Source of the DNA: a virus
Lineage: Duplodnaviria > Caudoviricetes
Reading direction: 5' to 3' (one strand)
IMG/VR virus record: IMGVR_UViG_3300012344_000018
Location: 32,238 to 96,237 of that record
Length of the DNA: 64,000 nucleotides
The first letter of the stretch is position 1. Every line of letters begins with the position of its first letter. A program made the translations under genes and the position numbers. Below the pieces are notes generated by a model. It ran no database searches, had not been told where the DNA came from, and saw only the letters and a list, made by a program, of their open reading frames with translations. Shown here piece by piece: positions 1-62,840 of this stretch.

Positions 1-3000
1 TAGGAGAATAAAGGAAGTTTCTAAATCTTTCAAAAGCAGTACCAGCATCAAGTTTATTTCCATCACTAATTCCAGCTAATTGGTCAAAATCTACAACATT
101 AAATTCTTTACAGATAGCATCTGCAAGAGTTGTAGATTTATCATTATAAAGACCTCTTAGGAAACTAGGTACAGCATTAACCCACATTTCTTTACCTTTA
201 AGATAATCAGATTTATCAAAGAAATCTTTAGCTATATATTCTCCAGCAATAGAAGATTCACCTACAGTAATATTACCAATACCACCAGTTATATTAAGCA
301 TCATAAACTTAGCAGAAGTAAATGCTTGCATAACACTAGCAGCTTTAGTATAATTAGCATTGCTTTCTTTAAACTGATTATATATTAATCTTCTTATCCA
401 ATTTTCATATTGACCTTGAAGTCTAGTATCTTTTTGTTTAAGATAATTAATTTCATCTTTAGCTCCTCTTTGACCATCTCTTTTAAGATTAGACCAACCA
501 AGATTCTTTTCATATACTTCCATTCTATCAAGCATTTCTTTTCCATAGAATAACATATACTTATTATCTTGAATTGCATTAAAATGAGCAGCTTGAGTTA
601 TAAAGTTACTAATAACTGTACGATAATCTCTATTCATAAGAGCTTCATGAATTGCTTTATTTTTAGATTCAGCTTCTTCAATTCTAGCATTATAATCAGC
701 CATTGCTTTATTGTATTCCTCTTCATCAGTATAAGAAGTTCTATTAGGTTTGGTTTTTCTAATATTCTCTATATTAATAGAATCTTTACTACGAAGTTCT
801 TTCATAAGCATAGGCATATCTATAGTTCTATCATCAGCATAATCTATATGATAAAATGGGTCACGACCATTTTGAAGTTTATCACTATAACCTAAGAACT
901 CTAAGAATTGACTTCCCCACCATCTAGCATTATGTTCTCTACCTTTACTCATCATAGGCATATATCCATGACCTATATATCGTTTAGCACTTTCAGTCTT
1001 AGCAAGACTTCTAAGAGTACTATTTAAATAATCAAGAAGTCTTTGTTGATGAGAATTAAGAACTTTATTACTATCATAAGTAGTATCAGTAGATTTCTTA
1101 TAATTATCTATATTTCCTAAACCTTCTCTATAATTAGCATTTTTATATGCACCTTTAGGTTCAAGTTCAGTTTGAGAATAACCAGCTGTCCAAGTACCAT
1201 TGTCATATCTAGGAATAACTTGAGTTTTTCTCCATATAAGAGTAGGTTCAAAAAGATGAGTAAAAGGATTATAAACATGATTACGTTCATACCATTCTTT
1301 AAACTCTTTATCTCCTTTAGCTCTTTGTTTTTTAAGTTCAGCTTCATAATATGGAGTATTTACAGTTTCAAGATATTTACCAATAGTATTAAGAGCTTTA
1401 GTCTTAGCTTCCATTTCTTGACGAAGTGCAGCAGCTTTCTTTCCACTCTTATTTTTTAAATATTTATCCATATCTACTTTAAGAGCAGAATATAAATATC
1501 TATTAGGAACTCTAGGTTTACTTTCATCATAAACTATATTTCCTTCACTATCTGTAACTACTTGGAACTTATCATCAACTTTAGGAATACCCATCATATT
1601 AACTCGTTCCCAAGCTTTATAATATTTATCTCCTTTAGCTTTAGCTCTTTCTCTTTCAAGATTAAAAGCAGTTTCATTATAAGAATTTAAATCGACATAA
1701 TTTCTAATAAACCAACCAATCGACTTACCATTAGTACCATCTACTGTTTTCTTAATTCCAGCAAATAATGGTTGATAAGCATCATAAAGTTTATTTAAAT
1801 CTTCCTCAGTCATTTGAGAAGTTTCAATATGTTTAGTAGATACATCATAATAAGGTCTAAGAATATCATTTACTTGCTTTACAATCTTTTGATATTCTTC
1901 ATTAGGAATACCATTAGATGACATTCTTCTATAAATTTCAGTAGGATAAACAGTGTTATCTTCAGGAGCATTACTTATTAATATTCTGTCACTACAAGTA
2001 CCAAATTTGTTTATATCGTATTTACGTTCTGCTTCTTCTTTTATTTTTTGTTGATATTCGTCAGAATATGCAGAACCATCTATACGACCATATTCATCAT
2101 AAGTAACTTTTCCTTCTTTAACAAGTTTCTTAGTGACAGCTTTAAATACTTCACTTCTATTACCTTTATATCCTAAAGACTTATAAGCTTCATGTATCTC
2201 TTTTTGAATATCAGGGTCAATAGTCCATTTAGCATTAGCTGCTAACCAAGCTTTAGCTCTTTTATAATCTTCATTTGCTTCAAGTTGAGATACTGGAACT
2301 CTAAGTCTTCCATAAGCATCACGAGCTTCAGCAGTTTCAATTATATCAAGATTCTTATTAAGTTGTTCTTCAAAACCTTTCTTTACTTTATTATCATTAT
2401 ATTTATTTCTTATTTCATTAATCTTAGCTAAATAGTTATCTAAAGCTTTGCAATCAGCATAATTATTAGTACGAGCTTTTCTATATCTTTCTTCATCTAC
2501 TATTTCTATAACTTCACCTTTATCATTAACTCTTGCTCCAGGATAACCTATAACAAAAGATTCTTTTTCTTCATAAGTATTAAAATCTATAGTAGAACGA
2601 AGTTCAAGAATTTTACTTTGTAAATCTTTAAGTTTAGATTCATCAGCAGGGTCAAGAACTCCATTAATTCTACCTTCATTTATCTTTGCTATCTGAGCAC
2701 GAAGTTTAGTATATTCTTCAAATATAGGCATATGATGAGCAATCATTTCTTCATCATTATCATAAAGTTCTTTATAATAGTCATCTACAAATCTTCTATT
2801 AACATGGTCTAATAAGAACTTATCATATTTATGTTGAGCAAGAATATAATCTTTAGGATTGTCAATTCTATTAGCTTTAGCTTCTCTAAGTTCTTTAGCT
2901 ATTGCTTTATAATCAGATTCAAACTTTTCATTATAAGGACGAATACTTCTACCATCTTTATCAATTATATCATCAAAAGAAAGATTAACTCCGTCTCTTC

Positions 3001-6000
3001 TAGCATCAGCAAAAATCTTATCTAGTTCTTTATTAAAACTTTCTACTCGTTTCATTGCTTGCATTTCTTTAGCTCTAATATCAGCCATTACATTTCTAGT
3101 AATAACTTGCACAAAAGCATTACCAGAATCTTGTAAATCACCAACCCAAGCATCAAACCAACTAGTAGAATGAAAGCCATCAAATACACTAATAATATTA
3201 TTTTGAATCATTGGATTATCACTAAGTTTAGCAAGATAATCAGTAGCAAATAATGTTTCAGCTTGTTCAAGATTAGAACTATTAATAAGAGACTTAATGT
3301 TATCTTGAATCTTCTGAATATAATTAATAGTATTATCTGATTGTTTAGTCTTATCAACTTTAACAGAAACAATATCTCCATATTTAGTAATTAAAGCTCT
3401 AGCGTCAAGAAGAGTTTTTAAGAAACGTCTTTGTTCCATAGGATTGTTTCTAATATAATTAATAGTTTCAGCTTCAACTACAGAATGATAATGACCATTC
3501 TCATCAGCAAAAAATTGATTCAAATTAGAATTAACTTGTTCAACTTTAGTTCTAACATAATCACTAATTGCACCATAAACTTTTTCTTCTTCATTACTAA
3601 ATTGAACTTTCTTACCTTCAAATCCTTTTTCCCCTAATTTACGAACTTGACGTCTAGCTTCATAATCACCTTCATTTGCTCTACGAGACATATCTCTATA
3701 AGCGTCAATACTATAATCAAGAATAGTAGCATATTTCTTCTCATTAGTATCAAGAATAATATTTTTATTCTCAACTTTAGGAACTTCTTTAACTACTACA
3801 GTATTTGGAGCAACTATTATTCCTAAATCACCAAGACGACTAATTTCATTTGGAGAATATTTTCTAAATACAAAATTTGTATCTATAGTTCCATCATCTC
3901 CAGTTTCAGCATCTATATAATTAGAAACTATATGTTGTTGATGTCCAAATCTATAATTTACCATTCTACTTAGATAAATGTTTTGTATAGTAAATTCCTT
4001 ACCATTAGATGTAGGATATTTAGCAACTATATCTTGAATAGCTGCTCTAGCTGCACCTTCATTATATTTATCAGGATGATTTAAATCAAATACTCTTTCA
4101 TTCTTTAGTTTCTTATATTTAATTCCAAGATTGTATTTAGAAGCAAGTTCATTTATATCTTCTAATTCAAGATTTTCACCATTATTCTTTTCAATCTCAT
4201 TGATATAATCAAGATAAAAAGCTTCAGGTTTAAACTTATTATTTTCTTTAGTAAGACTTATTCCTGAAGTTTCATTTTCATCAAGTTTATTAATAGGATA
4301 AGCATAAACAGTTGTACCTATAGATTGAATCTTATAAAGAATACTTCTATATTCTTTATCAGCAGTTTTCTTAGTTTTAATTTCTACATAACTATTGCTT
4401 CTAAAATCATTAGGAATTTGTCTAGTAGAAGTGTCAGTTATAACACCATATTTAATAGCAAGTCTTCTATCTTCTTTAAGTTTATTCAATCTATCTTTAA
4501 AATCTTTTATTTCTTTAGAAATACGTTTTCTTTCTTCTTCATCAGTTTCATTATTAATCTCACCTTGAAGCTCAGAAATAGTATTTTCTAAATCAGTAGT
4601 ATCAGATAAATCAAATCTAAGAAGTTCTCTACTTTTTCTATTTTTATTAAGTTCATTAACTAGACGTTTACCTACTTTAGTTTTAGTTTCTGTTTTATGA
4701 TAAATAAATGAAGCATCACTATGTGAACGAATATAATCTTCAGCAACACCGTAGTCACTTACTTTATTATTAAACTCTTCAAGTATTTGTTTAACTAAAC
4801 TAACTCCACCGAAAAGACTATTATCTTTAAGACTATCATTAGTAATAAACTTATTAATAGCATTTCTTCTCATTTTAAAATTTTCAACTACAAAAGCATA
4901 TTTAATCATATCTATTGCAGCAAGTTTAATAAGAGGATTATCACTATTAATTGCTTGGTCAAACATCATATATGCAGTTTCAATATCAACAGTATCATCT
5001 TTAAAACTAATAGTTTGTTTAGATTGACCAGTTTGTTGAGCTTCATATTGATTAAACAAATTTACTTTGCAAAGACCAAATATACCAGCATCTTCAGTAT
5101 TAACTTGAAGCCAAGCTACTTTTTGAGCTGGAGTAAGTTTAGCAAACGTTTCAATTTCTTTTTGTGTAGGATAAACAATATCATTGACTGCAAACTTAAT
5201 GTCACTAGAAGCGTTATAACCAAATATTCTTTGACGTTCAGCTATTTCATCACTATCATTGTTTAAACTAAACTGAGCAAAAGTACCATCTTGATTAAAA
5301 ATAGGATTAACAGTCATTCTTATAGCAGGAGTATTATTATATATTCCACTAAGAACATATTGTTGAAAATCAGAATATTCTTTCTCATTTATTTGTCTAG
5401 TATTATCACTAAAAGAATCTTCAAGACTATAAATTATATCTTTAAACCAATTAGCTTGAGTATCAAAAAGCATACTATTAATACTAGTAGAAGTAGAAGT
5501 AGCATATTTTAAGAAACAATGAAGCGAAGGATAAGCTGAATCTGAATCAATACTTTGAGTCATATAATGATATAAATCATAAGATTTAATACCATTGTTA
5601 TCAACAATAAGCCCAGGATATATAGATTCAAGAAATGAAATAGAACTACCATCTTCTTTAGTAACATCAAGAACACTATGTTGTCTAGCATTATCTCCAT
5701 TTACAATAGTTTCAATATCTCTAAAAACTTTATTAGTTGCAAATATAGTTTGTTTAGCTCCAAATCTATCAGGATTACAAACTCTTGCTAAACTACTAAT
5801 ACCTTGAGCAAGTTTATTAATATCATTATAAGCAAAGAGAATATTAAGGTCAAATAACAATCTTTCTACGGGGGGGTTAGTTTGACCATCTTCTTCATTA
5901 ATTCTTGCAGCTAAATCATCGTAGTCAAGAATAATTCTATTATTATCTGTAAGACTATAATTAGTTTTAAGTACAGTATTAATTTTATCTATAGCTTTTT

Positions 6001-9000
6001 GTACACTATCTTCTTCAGTTACACCTATATTAAGTTCTATAGCTAGTTTCTTAATAGCGTTCTCAATAGGTTTAGAAGTTTCTTCTACATAAATAGATTT
6101 ATTAGCATTATATTCATTAACAATTCTAGTAATAGCAGGCTGCATAATAAATGCACAAGTAGTATCATAATTACTACCAATATCAGGAAGAGTTTTATAT
6201 ACAGCAAAAGTAAAATCATTTACGTTAGGTATAGCACCTTCCTTTACTGCATCAAGAATATGAGCAGTAGTTTGAGAAGTATAAGCAGTAAGAATACGTC
6301 CATCTACATTTTTATTGTCTTCAGACCAACCTATTCTAGTATGAGTAATAGTACATTTACTATTACCTAAATCTTTAACGTTATCTTTACCGAATCTATT
6401 AATAAGTTCTTTAAGTTGTTTATTGTCTTTATAATGATAATTAATTTGAATAGTATTATCAGAATTAATAGTTGGTCTAACTGTGTTACATACTGACACA
6501 AATGTATCACGAGTGACACTAAATGCTTTAAGTTTAGCACCACTCATAACATCTTCCTGATAATCAGCTTGCTCAAGAAAATCATAAGGACTTCTAGCTT
6601 TACGAATTTCTTTAACTACAGGATTGATAACTTTATCACGTGCAGAAATAATATCATCAAAATTAGAACGAGAAAGATTCTCTTCAAGAGATTCATCAGA
6701 TTGAAGAATATCAATCATATCATCAAGAAGTCTATTGTTACGAGCATTACGAGTATTAGCATTTTCAACATTTTGACTAAGATACTCATCATAAGTCATA
6801 AGACCAAGCTTCTTAGCAGCATTATTAAATTTATCAATTCTAGCTTGAAGAATAGCTTTTGCTTTATCAGACTTAAAGTTTTTCTTATTAATATATTCGT
6901 TACTAATAGAATCAACCATATCTTCATGAATAGATATAAAGTTATTATCTGCTTCATCAAGATTGGATTTATTCTCACGAATATAATCAGCTACAAACTG
7001 AAGTTGTTTAAGATAACTATCTTTAGTAAGTTTACCAGTCTTTTCATTCTTTACAGCTTGAGATTCAAATGCAGTATGAGCATCCTTTACAAGTTGTTTT
7101 GTTTCATCAGAAAGAGCTTCATAAGCTTCAGATTCTTCAGCAGAAAGTTCTTTACGAGACTTTTCAAATTGTTCATCTATTTCTTTATTAAGTTGTTCAA
7201 AAGCAGCTTTAACTGATTTATCTTTAATCTTATCAGCTTTTTCAAGATGTCTATTTACATAGTTAGCATAATCGTAAATATCAAGAGTTTCAGAATAAGA
7301 CTGTTTTCTAATATTACCACGCTTATCTACATAACTACTATATTGAATACCATATACAGAGTCAATATCAAAGTCAGAACCAGTCTGTGAAACCCAATCA
7401 TCAGGAACTACAATAGTTGAACCTTGAGCATCATCAAGGAAACCAACTACTTTCATAACACAAACAGATTGCTTACCTTCAGTAGGAATACGATAACCAA
7501 TAAGAGTATCAAGACTAGCATCCTGAAGCTGTTTCAGAAGTCCTCCTATAATATTTCCGTTTTCATCTCTAATTTCATCAGCTTCTTTATAACTTCCATC
7601 TTCATTCTTAGCAAAACCAAAATTAGACTTAGGAAGCATAATTTCAATATATCTCTTACCATTTGGATGATATTTAAGTTCTTTGTTTATTGTACTACCT
7701 TTAACAATATGTTGTTTATCAGCTTTAAAACCTACATTAGTAATCTGAGCAGCATGGAAACCGGGAAGTTTTTGACGAGTAATATTTCTATTAAATACAG
7801 ACTGACTAACACTTTCAAGTTTACTAATAGCATTACTAAGAATCATTGGCATATTAGGATTTGGTCTTCCTGTCATAGGATTAACAACTTCATTTTCAAT
7901 AAGAGTTACATAATCCATCATATTACTATCAAGACCAAGACGCATACATTCTTCTTTAAGCTTAGAGAAGAACATCTTATAATCTATACCACTAATAGTA
8001 CCATCGTCATTAAATTTAATATTGCCATTTTCATCTCTTGGAATATTAATTTCATCAGCTAAAGTATTAAAACTATCTTTAATATTAGCCGAGTAAAGTC
8101 TAAAGAACTCTTGTTTCTTAGCATAAAGAGGACTTAAAGGACTAATATTATCGATAATCTTTTTCATTATCTGAATACCAGCTTTATTCTCAGCATCCAT
8201 ATGTTGTGGAGTTTCTTGCTGAGTATAAAGATGATTATAATCATAATATTCAGCATAAGCTTGAGCGTGAGCATTAAAGTCATCAATATGTTCTTGAGTA
8301 ACTTCACCAGTTTTAGAATCAAATATTTCAAGCACTCTAGCTTTACCAGCTTTACTTGTCTCTTCAGTATTAAGTTGGTCAATATTATTATCTTTCATAA
8401 GATTATAAACTTGTTCAAGTTGAGTACCTCTAATAAATCTAGGAACAAGAACAAATTCAGCATTCTTAATTTGACGAGGAACAAATTTCTTACTTATAGG
8501 GTCAAAGTATTGGTCATAATAAAAATTCTTCTGAACTTGAACAAATTCTTTAATATCTCCACTACTAAGAGGTTCGTCATTTTGAATCTTTTCAATAAGA
8601 GGTAAATACTTAGTTAATTGTCCACGACCAGCTACACGACGAACCCATTCTTCAAATGTAATATAAGACTGAGCATCGTTTACAGTAGTACCAGTGAAAC
8701 CACCACCACGCTTAATACTTCTATCTTTATTTAATTCTGGAGTACCATCAGATTTATATTGAATAGGTCCGCCCATCAAATCTCTAGCTTGTTCAATAGT
8801 AAGACCTGCGTGTTTAACAAGGTCTTTTACTAAAGTACCATCTGCTCCTTCAGTATGTCCATCAGGAAATTGTTTTATTACTTTACATTCTTCAGAGGTT
8901 CTAATTGTATTCTTAATAGTTATACCTCTAAACTTAGTCATTTGTTGAACATCAATAGGATTCTTAAAACTAGCAAAACGTTTTTGAATTTCGCCATTAT

Positions 9001-35512: not shown

Positions 35513-35660
35513 ATCTTTATAATTAAAATGTTCTCTATTACATACTTTCCAACTTGAATACGAGACAAGCGTACTAGCACTTTTACTAGATGTATATCTT
35601 TTGTCAAGAGACAAGGAATAATCACTCCATTTAATTATTTTCGGTATTTCAACCGTAGAA

Positions 35661-60292: not shown

Positions 60293-60823
60293 TTAATCTT
60301 CTTTAGTCTTATCTTCTACAAAGTAACAATCAACTATAGGTTTAGCATTATCATTAATTGCAGCATGAATAGCATTATTAGGAATAATCTTAAACTCAAC
60401 AAAATATGTAGGTTGTTTTATATGAATACATTGAGAAGAAACTTTAGGGTCACTAACAGCAAGTCTAGTAATAAAACCAGGACTAAGACTATTATATTTA
60501 GCAGTTACATGATAACCTAAAGCCAAATCACTACCAGCAACATTCAACACATCACCAACTTTAATTTCATTAATAAAGTCATTATCTTTACCGTGCTTAA
60601 TCATAATAGCAACACCATTAACAGTAGAGTTTTTATTTTGCTTAATATTATTTATTAAAAGCATAGGAGATTCTTTAATAAGAATAGCAACTAGACTATA
60701 ATAAGGAGCTAGATTTACATTAGACACTAAAGACTGAAGATAATTAACATCAATCTCACTACGCATAGTTGGAAGATTATAAGTATAATCTTTACCATCA
60801 AAATTTACTTTTAAATGTTCCAT
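60293..60823 (-). CDS. Hypothetical protein (176 aa), first gene of the minus-strand operon
   Basis: Likely start MEHLKV at 60823. Confidence 0.65.
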   Translation of the reverse strand: MEHLKVNFDGKDYTYNLPTMRSEIDVNYLQSLVSNVNLAPYYSLVAILIKESPMLLINNIKQNKNSTVNGVAIMIKHGKDNDFINEIKVGDVLNVAGSDLALGYHVTAKYNSLSPGFITRLAVSDPKVSSQCIHIKQPTYFVEFKIIPNNAIHAAINDNAKPIVDCYFVEDKTKED

Positions 60824-60939
60824 AAAATCAATATTTAAATTAATAACTAGATTAATAACATTATCTTTAAAAGTTATGTAATATTTCAAAAACAGTTCTG
60901 CTCGAACTAATGATAATAGTGAAGCTGAACTTGATGCTG

Positions 60940-60947
60940 CAAATATA
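60940..60947 (-). promoter_or_regulatory. -7 element (TATATTTG) for the minus-strand operon
   Basis: TAnnTTTG followed by CAG; divergent from an identical TATATTTGCAG at 61042. Confidence 0.55.
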
Positions 60948-61041
60948 GATAATAATACTGATACTACAATAGATTATAGTGGTAAAATTTAGTCGATTAT
61001 GTTAAAAAATGTAAATCCCTTGTAGCTTATATAATATAATG

Positions 61042-61049
61042 TATATTTG
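61042..61049 (+). promoter_or_regulatory. -7 element (TATATTTG) driving the candidate ncRNA
   Basis: TAnnTTTG placed so that the expected start falls at or near G61055. Confidence 0.55.
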
Positions 61050-61054
61050 CAGAC

Positions 61055-61457
61055 GGTACGGTCAGGAGTATTAGACGTAATCATAACGATGATTATAATC
61101 GTGCTAATAGTAATGAAGGAGTAAGAAATACTGAAACTTCCTCTGAAGCTGATTGTAAAGCTCTTGCTACTTAGATGAGTGTTCGATTTCACGATGGTGG
61201 TAGTAATCTTAATTACAAACCTGACACTGCATTAGTTCTTCCCAATTAACTAACAAGTTGTGTGGATAGTTCTTGCTAATGTGGACAGCGACCGAAGATG
61301 CTTCTCGTAAAGATAAAACATTAAAGATTTATCAGAGAGTATCAAATCTATTATAAAGTTGTACAACCGATACTTCTTGATAATAGTCAAAAGACTTATT
61401 ATGTCTTATAAAGAACTAATAATAAAATAGGATATGAAGCGTCATATTGACCGTACC
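61055..61457 (+). ncRNA. Candidate ~400-nt structured non-coding RNA of unknown family
   Basis: 10-bp perfect closing stem GGTACGGTCA/TGACCGTACC, internal hairpins, upstream promoter element, downstream terminator and no long ORF. Confidence 0.55.
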
Positions 61458-61461
61458 AAAT

Positions 61462-61497
61462 AAAGGCTGCTAGAGTTAATTCTCTAGTAGCCTTTTT
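61462..61497 (+). terminator. Intrinsic terminator after the candidate ncRNA
   Basis: AAAGGCTGCTAGAG/CTCTAGTAGCCTTT stem followed by TT. Confidence 0.8.
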
Positions 61498-62175
61498 CAT
61501 TTCTAATAGTTTACAAACTAAATATACTAATGATAATATTAATGAAACTAAAGATACATATAATAATAAGAATAGAACTCAATTCATAAGTCCTTCTACG
61601 GGGCGGGTAAATAGACATCTAGTACTTCAAGATTCGTCTAGAACTTCTAATGCTTATAATGACAAAGATAGAACTTATATTATCGATGATAAAGGAGATA
61701 TAAATAATATTAGTAAGACTAATAAAGCTGATGGTAAAATAATAACGAAAGATATTATTTTAAATATAAATATAAATAAATTACTGGTGATTATATAACT
61801 AGTAAAGATGATAATGATAGTAATAATAGTAGTAAAAGAGAAGGAGAAAATGATATTGAATATGATTGTGAAGAACTTTATAATAGAGAGAATGTAAATG
61901 ATAATAAAGAAAGTGTTGATAACAATAATTATACTAATAGTTATAAATATAATACAGATTGTAAAGTTGAAGATGATACAAAATAATATTGAATAAAAGA
62001 AATAATGAAGATGAAGATTATAGCATAAAAGATTGTTATGATGAAAATAGCGAAGATAGTGAAGATGATAGTATATGTGTATAGTATATTATATAAATGT
62101 AAGGGGGAGGGTATGTAGTTAGACCCCCACCCGAGAATGGACGTATTGAAGTCCCCCGTACTCAAACTTAAACTT

Positions 62176-62230
62176 TTGACATCAAGAAAGAGACAAATTC
62201 AACAACAAGAAAAGAAACAAGTCTTGGCAT
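62176..62230 (+). repeat. ~24-bp tandem units (TTGACATCAAGAAA...ACAA) upstream of the first plus-strand gene
   Basis: Units at 62176, ~62199 and 62224 (partial); the first 14 bp are identical to 63184. Confidence 0.55.
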
Positions 62231-62288
62231 GGAACGAATCTGTGCTACAGCTTATGCTGTTATTATTCATTTTAATACACAATAGATT

Positions 62289-62840
62289 ATGAAAAGTTTA
62301 AATGCTAAAGTTACAGTTTCTAATGTTAGTTTGTACACAACTGAAGAAGGTCGTCAAATGATTGCTCTCATTATTAATGAGAGTATTCCTGCTCGTCGTC
62401 TTGACAAGAATACTGGTGAACTTGTTGCTTGTTATGCTAATGACATCAAGATGCCATTACGTCAGTTCATGCACATTGTATTTTATGATACTGCGACTAT
62501 GTTTCAGTATTATCTTAATACTGATGGCAGAGAACGTGGTTATTACAAGACAATGTCTCAGACTGAGTATTACAATATTCTTGTTGGTGCTACTCTTTCT
62601 CTTACTATTGAAAAGTATGAAGATGGTGAAGAGTTTGTCAATGAGATTACAGGTGAGACTGATTCTTCTGACGGTGTTACATTTCACACTCGTATTGCTG
62701 ACATTGAACTGTCTAAGTTCGGTGACGACTTTGCCTTTGGTGAGCCAAAAGACATGCTTAAGATGATGCAAATCATTGATGCTGCTAAGAAAGCTCGTCA
62801 TACAAAGTTTGACTTTGCTACTGAGAAAGCTGCTGAGTAA
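62289..62840 (+). CDS. Hypothetical early protein (183 aa)
   Basis: Strongly biased codons; followed by a terminator. Confidence 0.8.
   Translation: MKSLNAKVTVSNVSLYTTEEGRQMIALIINESIPARRLDKNTGELVACYANDIKMPLRQFMHIVFYDTATMFQYYLNTDGRERGYYKTMSQTEYYNILVGATLSLTIEKYEDGEEFVNEITGETDSSDGVTFHTRIADIELSKFGDDFAFGEPKDMLKMMQIIDAAKKARHTKFDFATEKAAE

Follow-up and report, generated by a model that had tools for sequence, protein, structure and literature searches.

Evidence for a structured RNA gene of about 400 nucleotides in the divergent gap upstream of the late operon of crAss-like phages

A stretch between divergently transcribed genes in a crAss-like phage, 61054-61497 on the + strand, is very probably a real structured RNA gene. 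The window, by which we mean the whole stretch of DNA analyzed, is the final 64 kb of a 96,237-bp IMG/VR virus record that is rated complete, and coordinates refer to this window. The initial annotation had proposed a stand-alone phage RNA gene of no known class at the early/late boundary. That reading is supported by a promoter and a terminator that are both conserved, by compensatory changes in the helices, by a G-U bias that marks one strand, and by the lack of a conserved reading frame and of any Rfam, tRNA or tmRNA match.

The phage is crAss-like, a member of the Intestiviridae. Its portal and large terminase are encoded on the - strand of the window, and the nearest named relative by terminase sequence, at 79.6% amino acid identity, is cr8_1 (Fohxhuevirus, Obtuvirinae, Intestiviridae, Crassvirales), from human faeces. 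The predicted RNA unit lies in a 1.4-kb gap (60890-62289) that is free of long ORFs, with the - strand late operon on one side and + strand genes on the other. The -7 box of the late-operon promoter, from which lysis, terminase and portal genes lie downstream, is 94 bp from the -7 box of the RNA unit and is found in the same sequence context, the two promoters standing back to back. A block at 60935-60976, which contains the late-operon -7 box, is the only portion of the gap common to nearly all relatives. The RNA unit occurs as a single copy in the genome, and the genes neighboring it could be assigned to no Pfam or PHROG family. The + strand genes of the genome include a 334-residue ORF (C1:6488-7492, locus L166) with homing-endonuclease domains resembling those of I-HmuI and NUMOD proteins.

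Table 1. Coordinates of the predicted RNA unit, its flanking signals and its proposed helices, in window positions.
Feature	Position	Strand	Description
Late-operon divergent promoter, -7 box	60938-60947	-	Back to back with RNA promoter
Bacteroidota (host-type) promoter	61020-61049	+	Partial -33 TTG 61020-22, 19-nt spacer, -7 box TAnnTTTG 61042-49
Predicted RNA	61054-61497	+	About 405 nt to end of closing stem, about 445 nt with terminator hairpin; ends predicted from promoter and terminator
P1 closing stem	61055-61064 with 61448-61457	+	Perfect, 10 bp
P2	61069-74 with 61104-09	+	Inner hairpin 61078-84/61089-95
P3 hairpin	61115-18/61137-40	+	Internal loop AGUA/GAAA 61119-23/61133-36; P3a 61124-25/61131-32; apical loop 61126-30
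P5 module	61164-71/61199-61206	+	Encloses UAGAUG 61172-77, hairpin P5a 61179-81/61190-92, GAUGGU 61193-98
P7	61227-35 with 61276-84	+	Encloses conserved block 61257-75
P8 (tentative)	61297-61306 with 61335-43	+	One bulge; P8a hairpin 61312-17/61328-33
3' domain	61344-61447	+	Hairpins 61391-95/61403-07 and 61432-37/61442-47; third GAUrNUUCU copy 61369-79
Intrinsic terminator	61462-61497	+	14-bp stem 61462-95 (6 GC), 6-nt loop, then U run

The signals that bound the unit are given in Table 1. The -7 element, the perfect pairing between the two ends and the strong terminator described in the initial annotation can all be read at these positions, and the unit is richer in GC than its flanks (0.34-0.385 versus 0.22-0.29) and free of + strand ORFs of 60 or more codons, as had also been noted there. 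The promoter block is nearly invariant across all homologues, and relatives carry the full TTTG at -33. Two terminator-like sites occur in the region 60600-62400, compared with an expectation of 0.2. The terminator is identical in the window copy and in three related loci (L112, L019 and L002), while a fourth, L010, has a related stem and the same loop. Compared with dinucleotide shuffles, the minimum free energy of the predicted transcript gives z = -4.6 when the terminator is included and -3.2 when it is left off.

For comparison, 80 loci around terminase homologues were collected. The terminase served well as search anchor; the neighboring protein encoded at 60293-60889, tried as an alternative anchor, found nothing. 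BLAST and nhmmer searches over the terminase loci detected it in just two, L019 and L002, with an identity of about 72%. A pattern scan of metagenomes added L112, which is full length and 88.5% identical to the window RNA, L106, which comes from human gut, and L109, which contains the 5' half only. A search by architecture, requiring the same promoter box followed by a terminator, then yielded diverged units at the same syntenic place in L010, L023 (identical to L025), L030 and L031. The homologues come from about ten contigs of related crAss-like phages, and all lie in the divergent gap upstream of the terminase and late operon. They fall into five diverged groups: A (the window and L112), B (L019, L002, L106 and L109), C (L010), D (L023/L025) and E (L030 and L031). 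Groups C and D could not be aligned automatically to the rest. They nevertheless share with the others the promoter, the CAAAUAG apical loop, the P5 module (a helix, UAGAU, a hairpin, GGU and a helix), and a P7-like helix following CUG; the terminator loop is shared as well in group C.

Both nhmmer and a first covariance model, R1, recover groups A and B only. Weak R1 matches in L027 and L009, from which the P5 module is deleted, were treated as noise. Pattern scans of IMG/VR found no additional member, and BLAST of the gap against published phages gave no match. A pattern scan of bacterial genomes returned 14 matches, all in unrelated taxa and at about the number expected by chance, and these were taken to be chance matches. 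A second covariance model, R2, which represents only the core of the RNA family, found no match in cr8_1 or in the stretch of p-crAssphage upstream of the terminase, gap included.

The helices in Table 1 were derived from alignments and from folding single sequences. The closing stem P1 exists in four to five sequence versions (window, L112, L019, L002 and L010), with changes on both sides, and all of them are complementary; the version in L010 is an unrelated one of 7 bp. No shuffle in 1000 was as stable as the P1 duplex of the window, and between 0 and 5 in 1000 were for each sequence tested. Groups A, B and C have this stem; groups D and E do not. The outer helix of P2 covaries among the window, L112 and L002, with 0-25 of 500 shuffles reaching its duplex energy, while its inner hairpin, an insertion, is found in the window copy alone. 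P3 and P3a show changes on both sides in L030 and L031. The CAAAUAG motif of the P3 apical loop is present in all five groups, and the internal loop, judged by its sequence, resembles a loop-E/bulged-G motif.

The P5 helix has five different sequences (in the window, L019/L002, L030, L010 and L023), every one of them paired, and every group retains the internal-loop motifs UAGAU and GGU. In P7, the inner five pairs vary among the window, L019, L002, L030 and L031 and are always paired, while the outer pairs C-G, U-G and G-U are constant. These U-G and G-U pairs, being conserved, point to the + strand as the one that folds. P8 is offered tentatively because its energy test was not significant. 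The initial annotation had listed several internal hairpins; those at 61078-95, 61391-61407 and 61432-47 are present. The one it placed at about 61329-61383 has a rival, since the 15-nt hairpin 61329-43/61369-83 competes with the pairing of 61335-43 to 61297-61306 that forms P8. L112 favors P8: all three of its changes in 61335-43 are tolerated or compensated there, and two of them break the hairpin with 61369-83.

For the 3' domain, several mutually exclusive pairings are predicted. Group B has in this domain a perfect 16-bp long-range helix, which group A lacks; L019 and L002 differ in it by an exchange of C-G for U-A. The small hairpin at 61391-61407 is broken in L002 by a change that is compensated in the long-range helix. 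The motif GAUrNUUCUyG occurs three times (61265-75, 61297-61307 and 61369-79), and each copy is complementary to the AGAGAGUAUC segment at 61334-43. The three copies may constitute a conformational switch or repeated protein sites.

Statistics were computed on an alignment of eight sequences from groups A, B and E, re-aligned by model R2. In this alignment 86.5% of the cells are paired, compared with 74.5% after shuffling and 35-44% after sliding by 1-3 columns. Changes on both sides were seen in ten pairs, a count reached in 2 of 500 shuffles; the count is conservative, because the alignment displaces P5 in group E and the final P7 pairs in groups B and E by one column or puts them into insert columns. 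The covariation score was 0.413, against 0.197 for shuffled alignments, and none of 500 shuffles reached it. G-U pairs number 38 and A-C pairs 6, an excess which indicates that the + strand is the folded strand. Because the family is small, this covariation rests on five or six lineages. Collecting homologues and examining their covariation, as the initial annotation had recommended, thus gave relatives in five groups, with compensatory changes in the terminal stem and in internal helices. The RNA fold is conserved while the sequence changes.

The unit is non-coding, and no conserved reading frame crosses it. The window, L019 and L002 share a small open frame of 24-25 codons whose ATG lies at 61175. 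It was rejected as a gene because it is cut after three codons in L112; the differences within it are not at third positions and form compensated hairpins. Indels among the homologous RNAs measure 1, 3, 4 and 15 nt. We also observed a 115-codon stop-free frame with no start codon (61451-61795, + strand) that runs through the terminator and is unusual for DNA of 27% GC. It is interrupted by TAA and TGA in L019, L002 and L112. The coding-looking flanks had suggested an interrupted gene or an intron, an idea that was rejected: the flanking frames contain stops in the same three relatives, and no intron core was found, a search for the group I catalytic core (RF00028) giving no match at E up to 10. 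The flanks are spacer, and the unit has its own promoter and terminator.

At gathering level, the Rfam search that the initial annotation had called for found nothing at the RNA unit. The only match in the whole window is RT-17 (35528-35618, - strand, 43 bits), in a stretch where an earlier reading had seen a diversity-generating retroelement. Permissive Rfam 15 scans (E up to 10) of the window copy, L030 and L019 gave only sub-threshold matches, the best of them at most 30 bits and lying over the terminator. ARAGORN, also recommended earlier, reports no tRNA or tmRNA gene in the window. The noted lack of an RNase P signature agrees with the lack of any RNase P match in Rfam, and there is no match to 6S RNA either. 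At E up to 10, none was found to ROOL, GOLLD, raiA, OLE, group I or II introns or small ribozymes.

The RNA is patchily distributed and its sequence turns over quickly. A search with R2, the core model, of five cr8_1-like records, a group with 79-80% terminase identity of which four members, cr8_1 included, are rated complete, gave no match anywhere, and at the same spot these genomes have an A/G-rich spacer of about 320 nt. The RNA gene is therefore dispensable or accessory. Compared with the window, the RNA body is 70% identical in L019 and L002, and in L010 it cannot be aligned; the corresponding values are 84-85% and 82% for the terminase gene, and 89% and 86% for the exonuclease gene. The terminator together with the following stretch of about 200 nt is 84-85% identical in L019 and L002, and the block 61495-61680 is 83-85% identical. 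The neighboring gene 60293-60889, at 69-70% identity, evolves as fast as the RNA, so the fast turnover may belong to the region rather than to the RNA. L112 resembles the window across the RNA and L019 downstream of the terminator, a pattern that suggests a recombination breakpoint near the terminator. A G-run/C-run hairpin at 62104-62133, ahead of 24-bp tandem units, is kept also in L080, a relative without the RNA.

In the phage phi14:2, early genes are transcribed by an injected virion polymerase, while middle and late genes are transcribed by host RNA polymerase from sigma-type promoters (bioRxiv 10.1101/2020.03.07.982082). Taken with this scheme, the host-type and late-like promoter of the window RNA points to transcription by host RNA polymerase in the middle or late phase, and argues against early transcription by a virion polymerase. 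Host RNA polymerase would start at about 61054-56 from the Bacteroidota -33/-7 promoter, and transcription would end at the terminator (61462-97). The transcript would fold into a multi-helix body comprising P2, P3, the P5 module, P7 and P8, closed in the window lineage by the stem between its 5' and 3' ends. The RNA might then, at a middle or late stage of infection, act in trans as a scaffold or decoy for protein, with the invariant internal loops and the repeated GAUrNUUCU motifs holding a host or phage protein. Its role might be an accessory one shaped by conflict with the host, such as counter-defence or host takeover, as is suggested by its patchy presence and by a sequence that turns over fast while the fold stays the same.

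Several observations favor a scaffold or decoy that binds protein and acts in trans. It is the internal loops and short repeats, rather than the helices, that stay invariant, the phage genome holds no complementary target (a search there for antisense targets gave only chance-level matches), the gene is accessory and fast-evolving, and the strong terminator lies well ahead of any gene. Co-occurrence of neighboring genes pointed to no partner, the neighbors being found in genomes with and without the RNA. We put this mechanism forward as a tentative proposal, held with low confidence and judged less probable than not, although it leads the alternatives weighed below. A judgment that blends the structured RNA gene with the scaffold or decoy mechanism comes out somewhat on the side of confidence.

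A sequence motif with core TCTACGGGG is found at 61592-61608, after the terminator, and has an inverted partner about 540 nt further on, at 62151-62162. Between the two lies a spacer (61700-62090) that is purine-rich and AT-rich, with a GC skew of +0.7. The motif occurs also in L010, in inverted orientation in L030 and L031, and as a hairpin in L052; it is found as well at L168:4846-4862 and 4966-4982. The p-crAssphage gap has it as an inverted repeat of 17 bp, adjacent to a RepL-like gene. The motif is a candidate origin or early-promoter element.

The RNA might also be tied to a replication origin or to an early/late switch, acting in cis or nearly so as a primer, an R-loop precursor or a regulator of early control. 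It lies in the divergent gap where the cumulative GC skew turns, it adjoins the conserved motif pair and its purine-rich spacer, and the equivalent p-crAssphage gap places a similar inverted motif beside a gene for a RepL-like initiator. We consider this unlikely, however. The conserved 14-bp terminator stops the transcript before it reaches the motif and the spacer, and close relatives that lack the RNA replicate all the same. In L030 and L031, moreover, the motif is on the strand opposite to the RNA, so motif and RNA do not form one unit.

Slightly less probable again is an RNA that works alone, whether as a self-assembling large RNA like ROOL and GOLLD or as a ribozyme. No partner gene was found, and the size, the many helices, the invariant internal loops and the phage origin do recall the orphan large RNAs of phages and prophages. 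Against this, the Rfam scans described above found neither these families nor RNase P, introns or ribozymes, the GC content is low and the predicted stability modest, and we saw no conserved palindromic loops of a kind that could provide contacts between the members of a multimer.

Patchy presence could also be explained if the unit were a selfish or decaying insert, such as a remnant intron or a MITE-like element, or served merely as an insulator between late and early transcription. The RNA does sit in a spacer that relatives possess without it, it is bounded by a 10-bp terminal inverted repeat, its A-rich flanks look coding (the 115-codon frame among them), and the probable recombination breakpoint lies close by. 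But the two ends change together in the manner of an RNA helix, with G-U pairs and in four versions, whereas a transposase site would keep its sequence. The genome has one copy, no target-site duplication is seen at its ends, and the stops in the flanking frames of relatives and the lack of an intron core apply here too; insulation, for its part, would not need a conserved fold of 400 nt. We regard this explanation as improbable. A leader or riboswitch-like element controlling read-through into + strand genes, or a message encoding a very small protein, is the least credible of all, for although the large fold immediately precedes a terminator and the frame at 61175 is open in three of the copies, the next + strand ORF (62289) is about 790 nt away and is not conserved in RNA-bearing relatives, predicted folds include no competitor of the terminator stem, and the small frame is truncated in L112, its differences being those of compensated hairpins.

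Returning to the scaffold or decoy as the preferred reading, the working model that we favor is provided by CsrB/RsmZ and 6S RNA, stand-alone RNAs that end in a terminator and titrate proteins through repeats or mimicry. The window RNA has no homology to these, and contains only three GAUrNUUCU repeats, which possibly are mere alternative pairing partners. Y RNAs, which are bound by Ro60/Rsr (TROVE) proteins, are similar to the window RNA in that their 5' and 3' ends pair and close a structured body. The Ro-binding stem of Y RNAs is conserved in sequence, unlike the closing stem of the window RNA, which differs in every lineage. The window RNA is also about four times as long as a Y RNA and has no Rfam Y RNA match. 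One of the early genes of the crAss-like phage crAss001 is for a TROVE protein (PMC8375218). TROVE (PF05731) is absent from the 96-kb genome of the window phage, in a search for which a Bacteroides control genome was positive.

ROOL and GOLLD are, like the window RNA, large folded orphan RNAs of phages and prophages, patchy in distribution and with no known protein partner or function. They are longer (about 580-800 nt, compared with about 405 nt), and there is no match to RF03087 or RF01998. The window RNA differs further in being AT-rich, in not lying beside tRNA genes, and in being confined to one crAss lineage. It is a new RNA family within this known kind of phage-borne orphan large RNAs.

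Our survey of the literature for structured RNAs of crAss-like phages found only a remark on phi14:2, in which abundant long non-coding transcripts, with no function assigned, arise from the gene-free gaps g004-g005 and g005-g006 (bioRxiv 10.1101/2020.03.07.982082; Nature 2021). These transcripts and the window RNA both occupy long gene-free gaps near the early region of a Crassvirales genome. The phages belong to different families, however, phi14:2 to the Steigviridae and the window phage to the Intestiviridae. The phi14:2 transcripts are early, a class that its authors assign to the rifampicin-resistant virion polymerase, while the window RNA has a host-type promoter like that of the late operon. 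No structure has been described for the phi14:2 transcripts, and model R2, the core of the window RNA family only, found no match at E up to 1 in positions 1-7000 of the phi14:2 genome (NC_021806), gap included.

It is conceivable that large structured RNAs, each particular to a lineage and quick to evolve, are a general feature of Crassvirales at the early/late switch, of which the window family and the phi14:2 transcripts would be instances, and that these serve as decoys or scaffolds that disarm Bacteroidales defence or seize a host RNA-binding protein. We think this broader idea rather doubtful. If it were true, phages would have in such RNAs a weapon of a new kind, subject to exchange and diversification in an arms race. 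The impact of the present family is limited, because it is rare, at about ten contigs, and because its function is a guess.

In the human gut, crAss-like phages outnumber all other viruses. To our knowledge, their non-coding genes are almost entirely uncharacterized, the phi14:2 transcripts being the sole published hint. The family described here adds, in a human-gut lineage, a bounded RNA that is supported by covariation and has a testable secondary structure. For RNA biology it offers a new orphan fold of about 400 nt, and for phage biology a candidate accessory factor.
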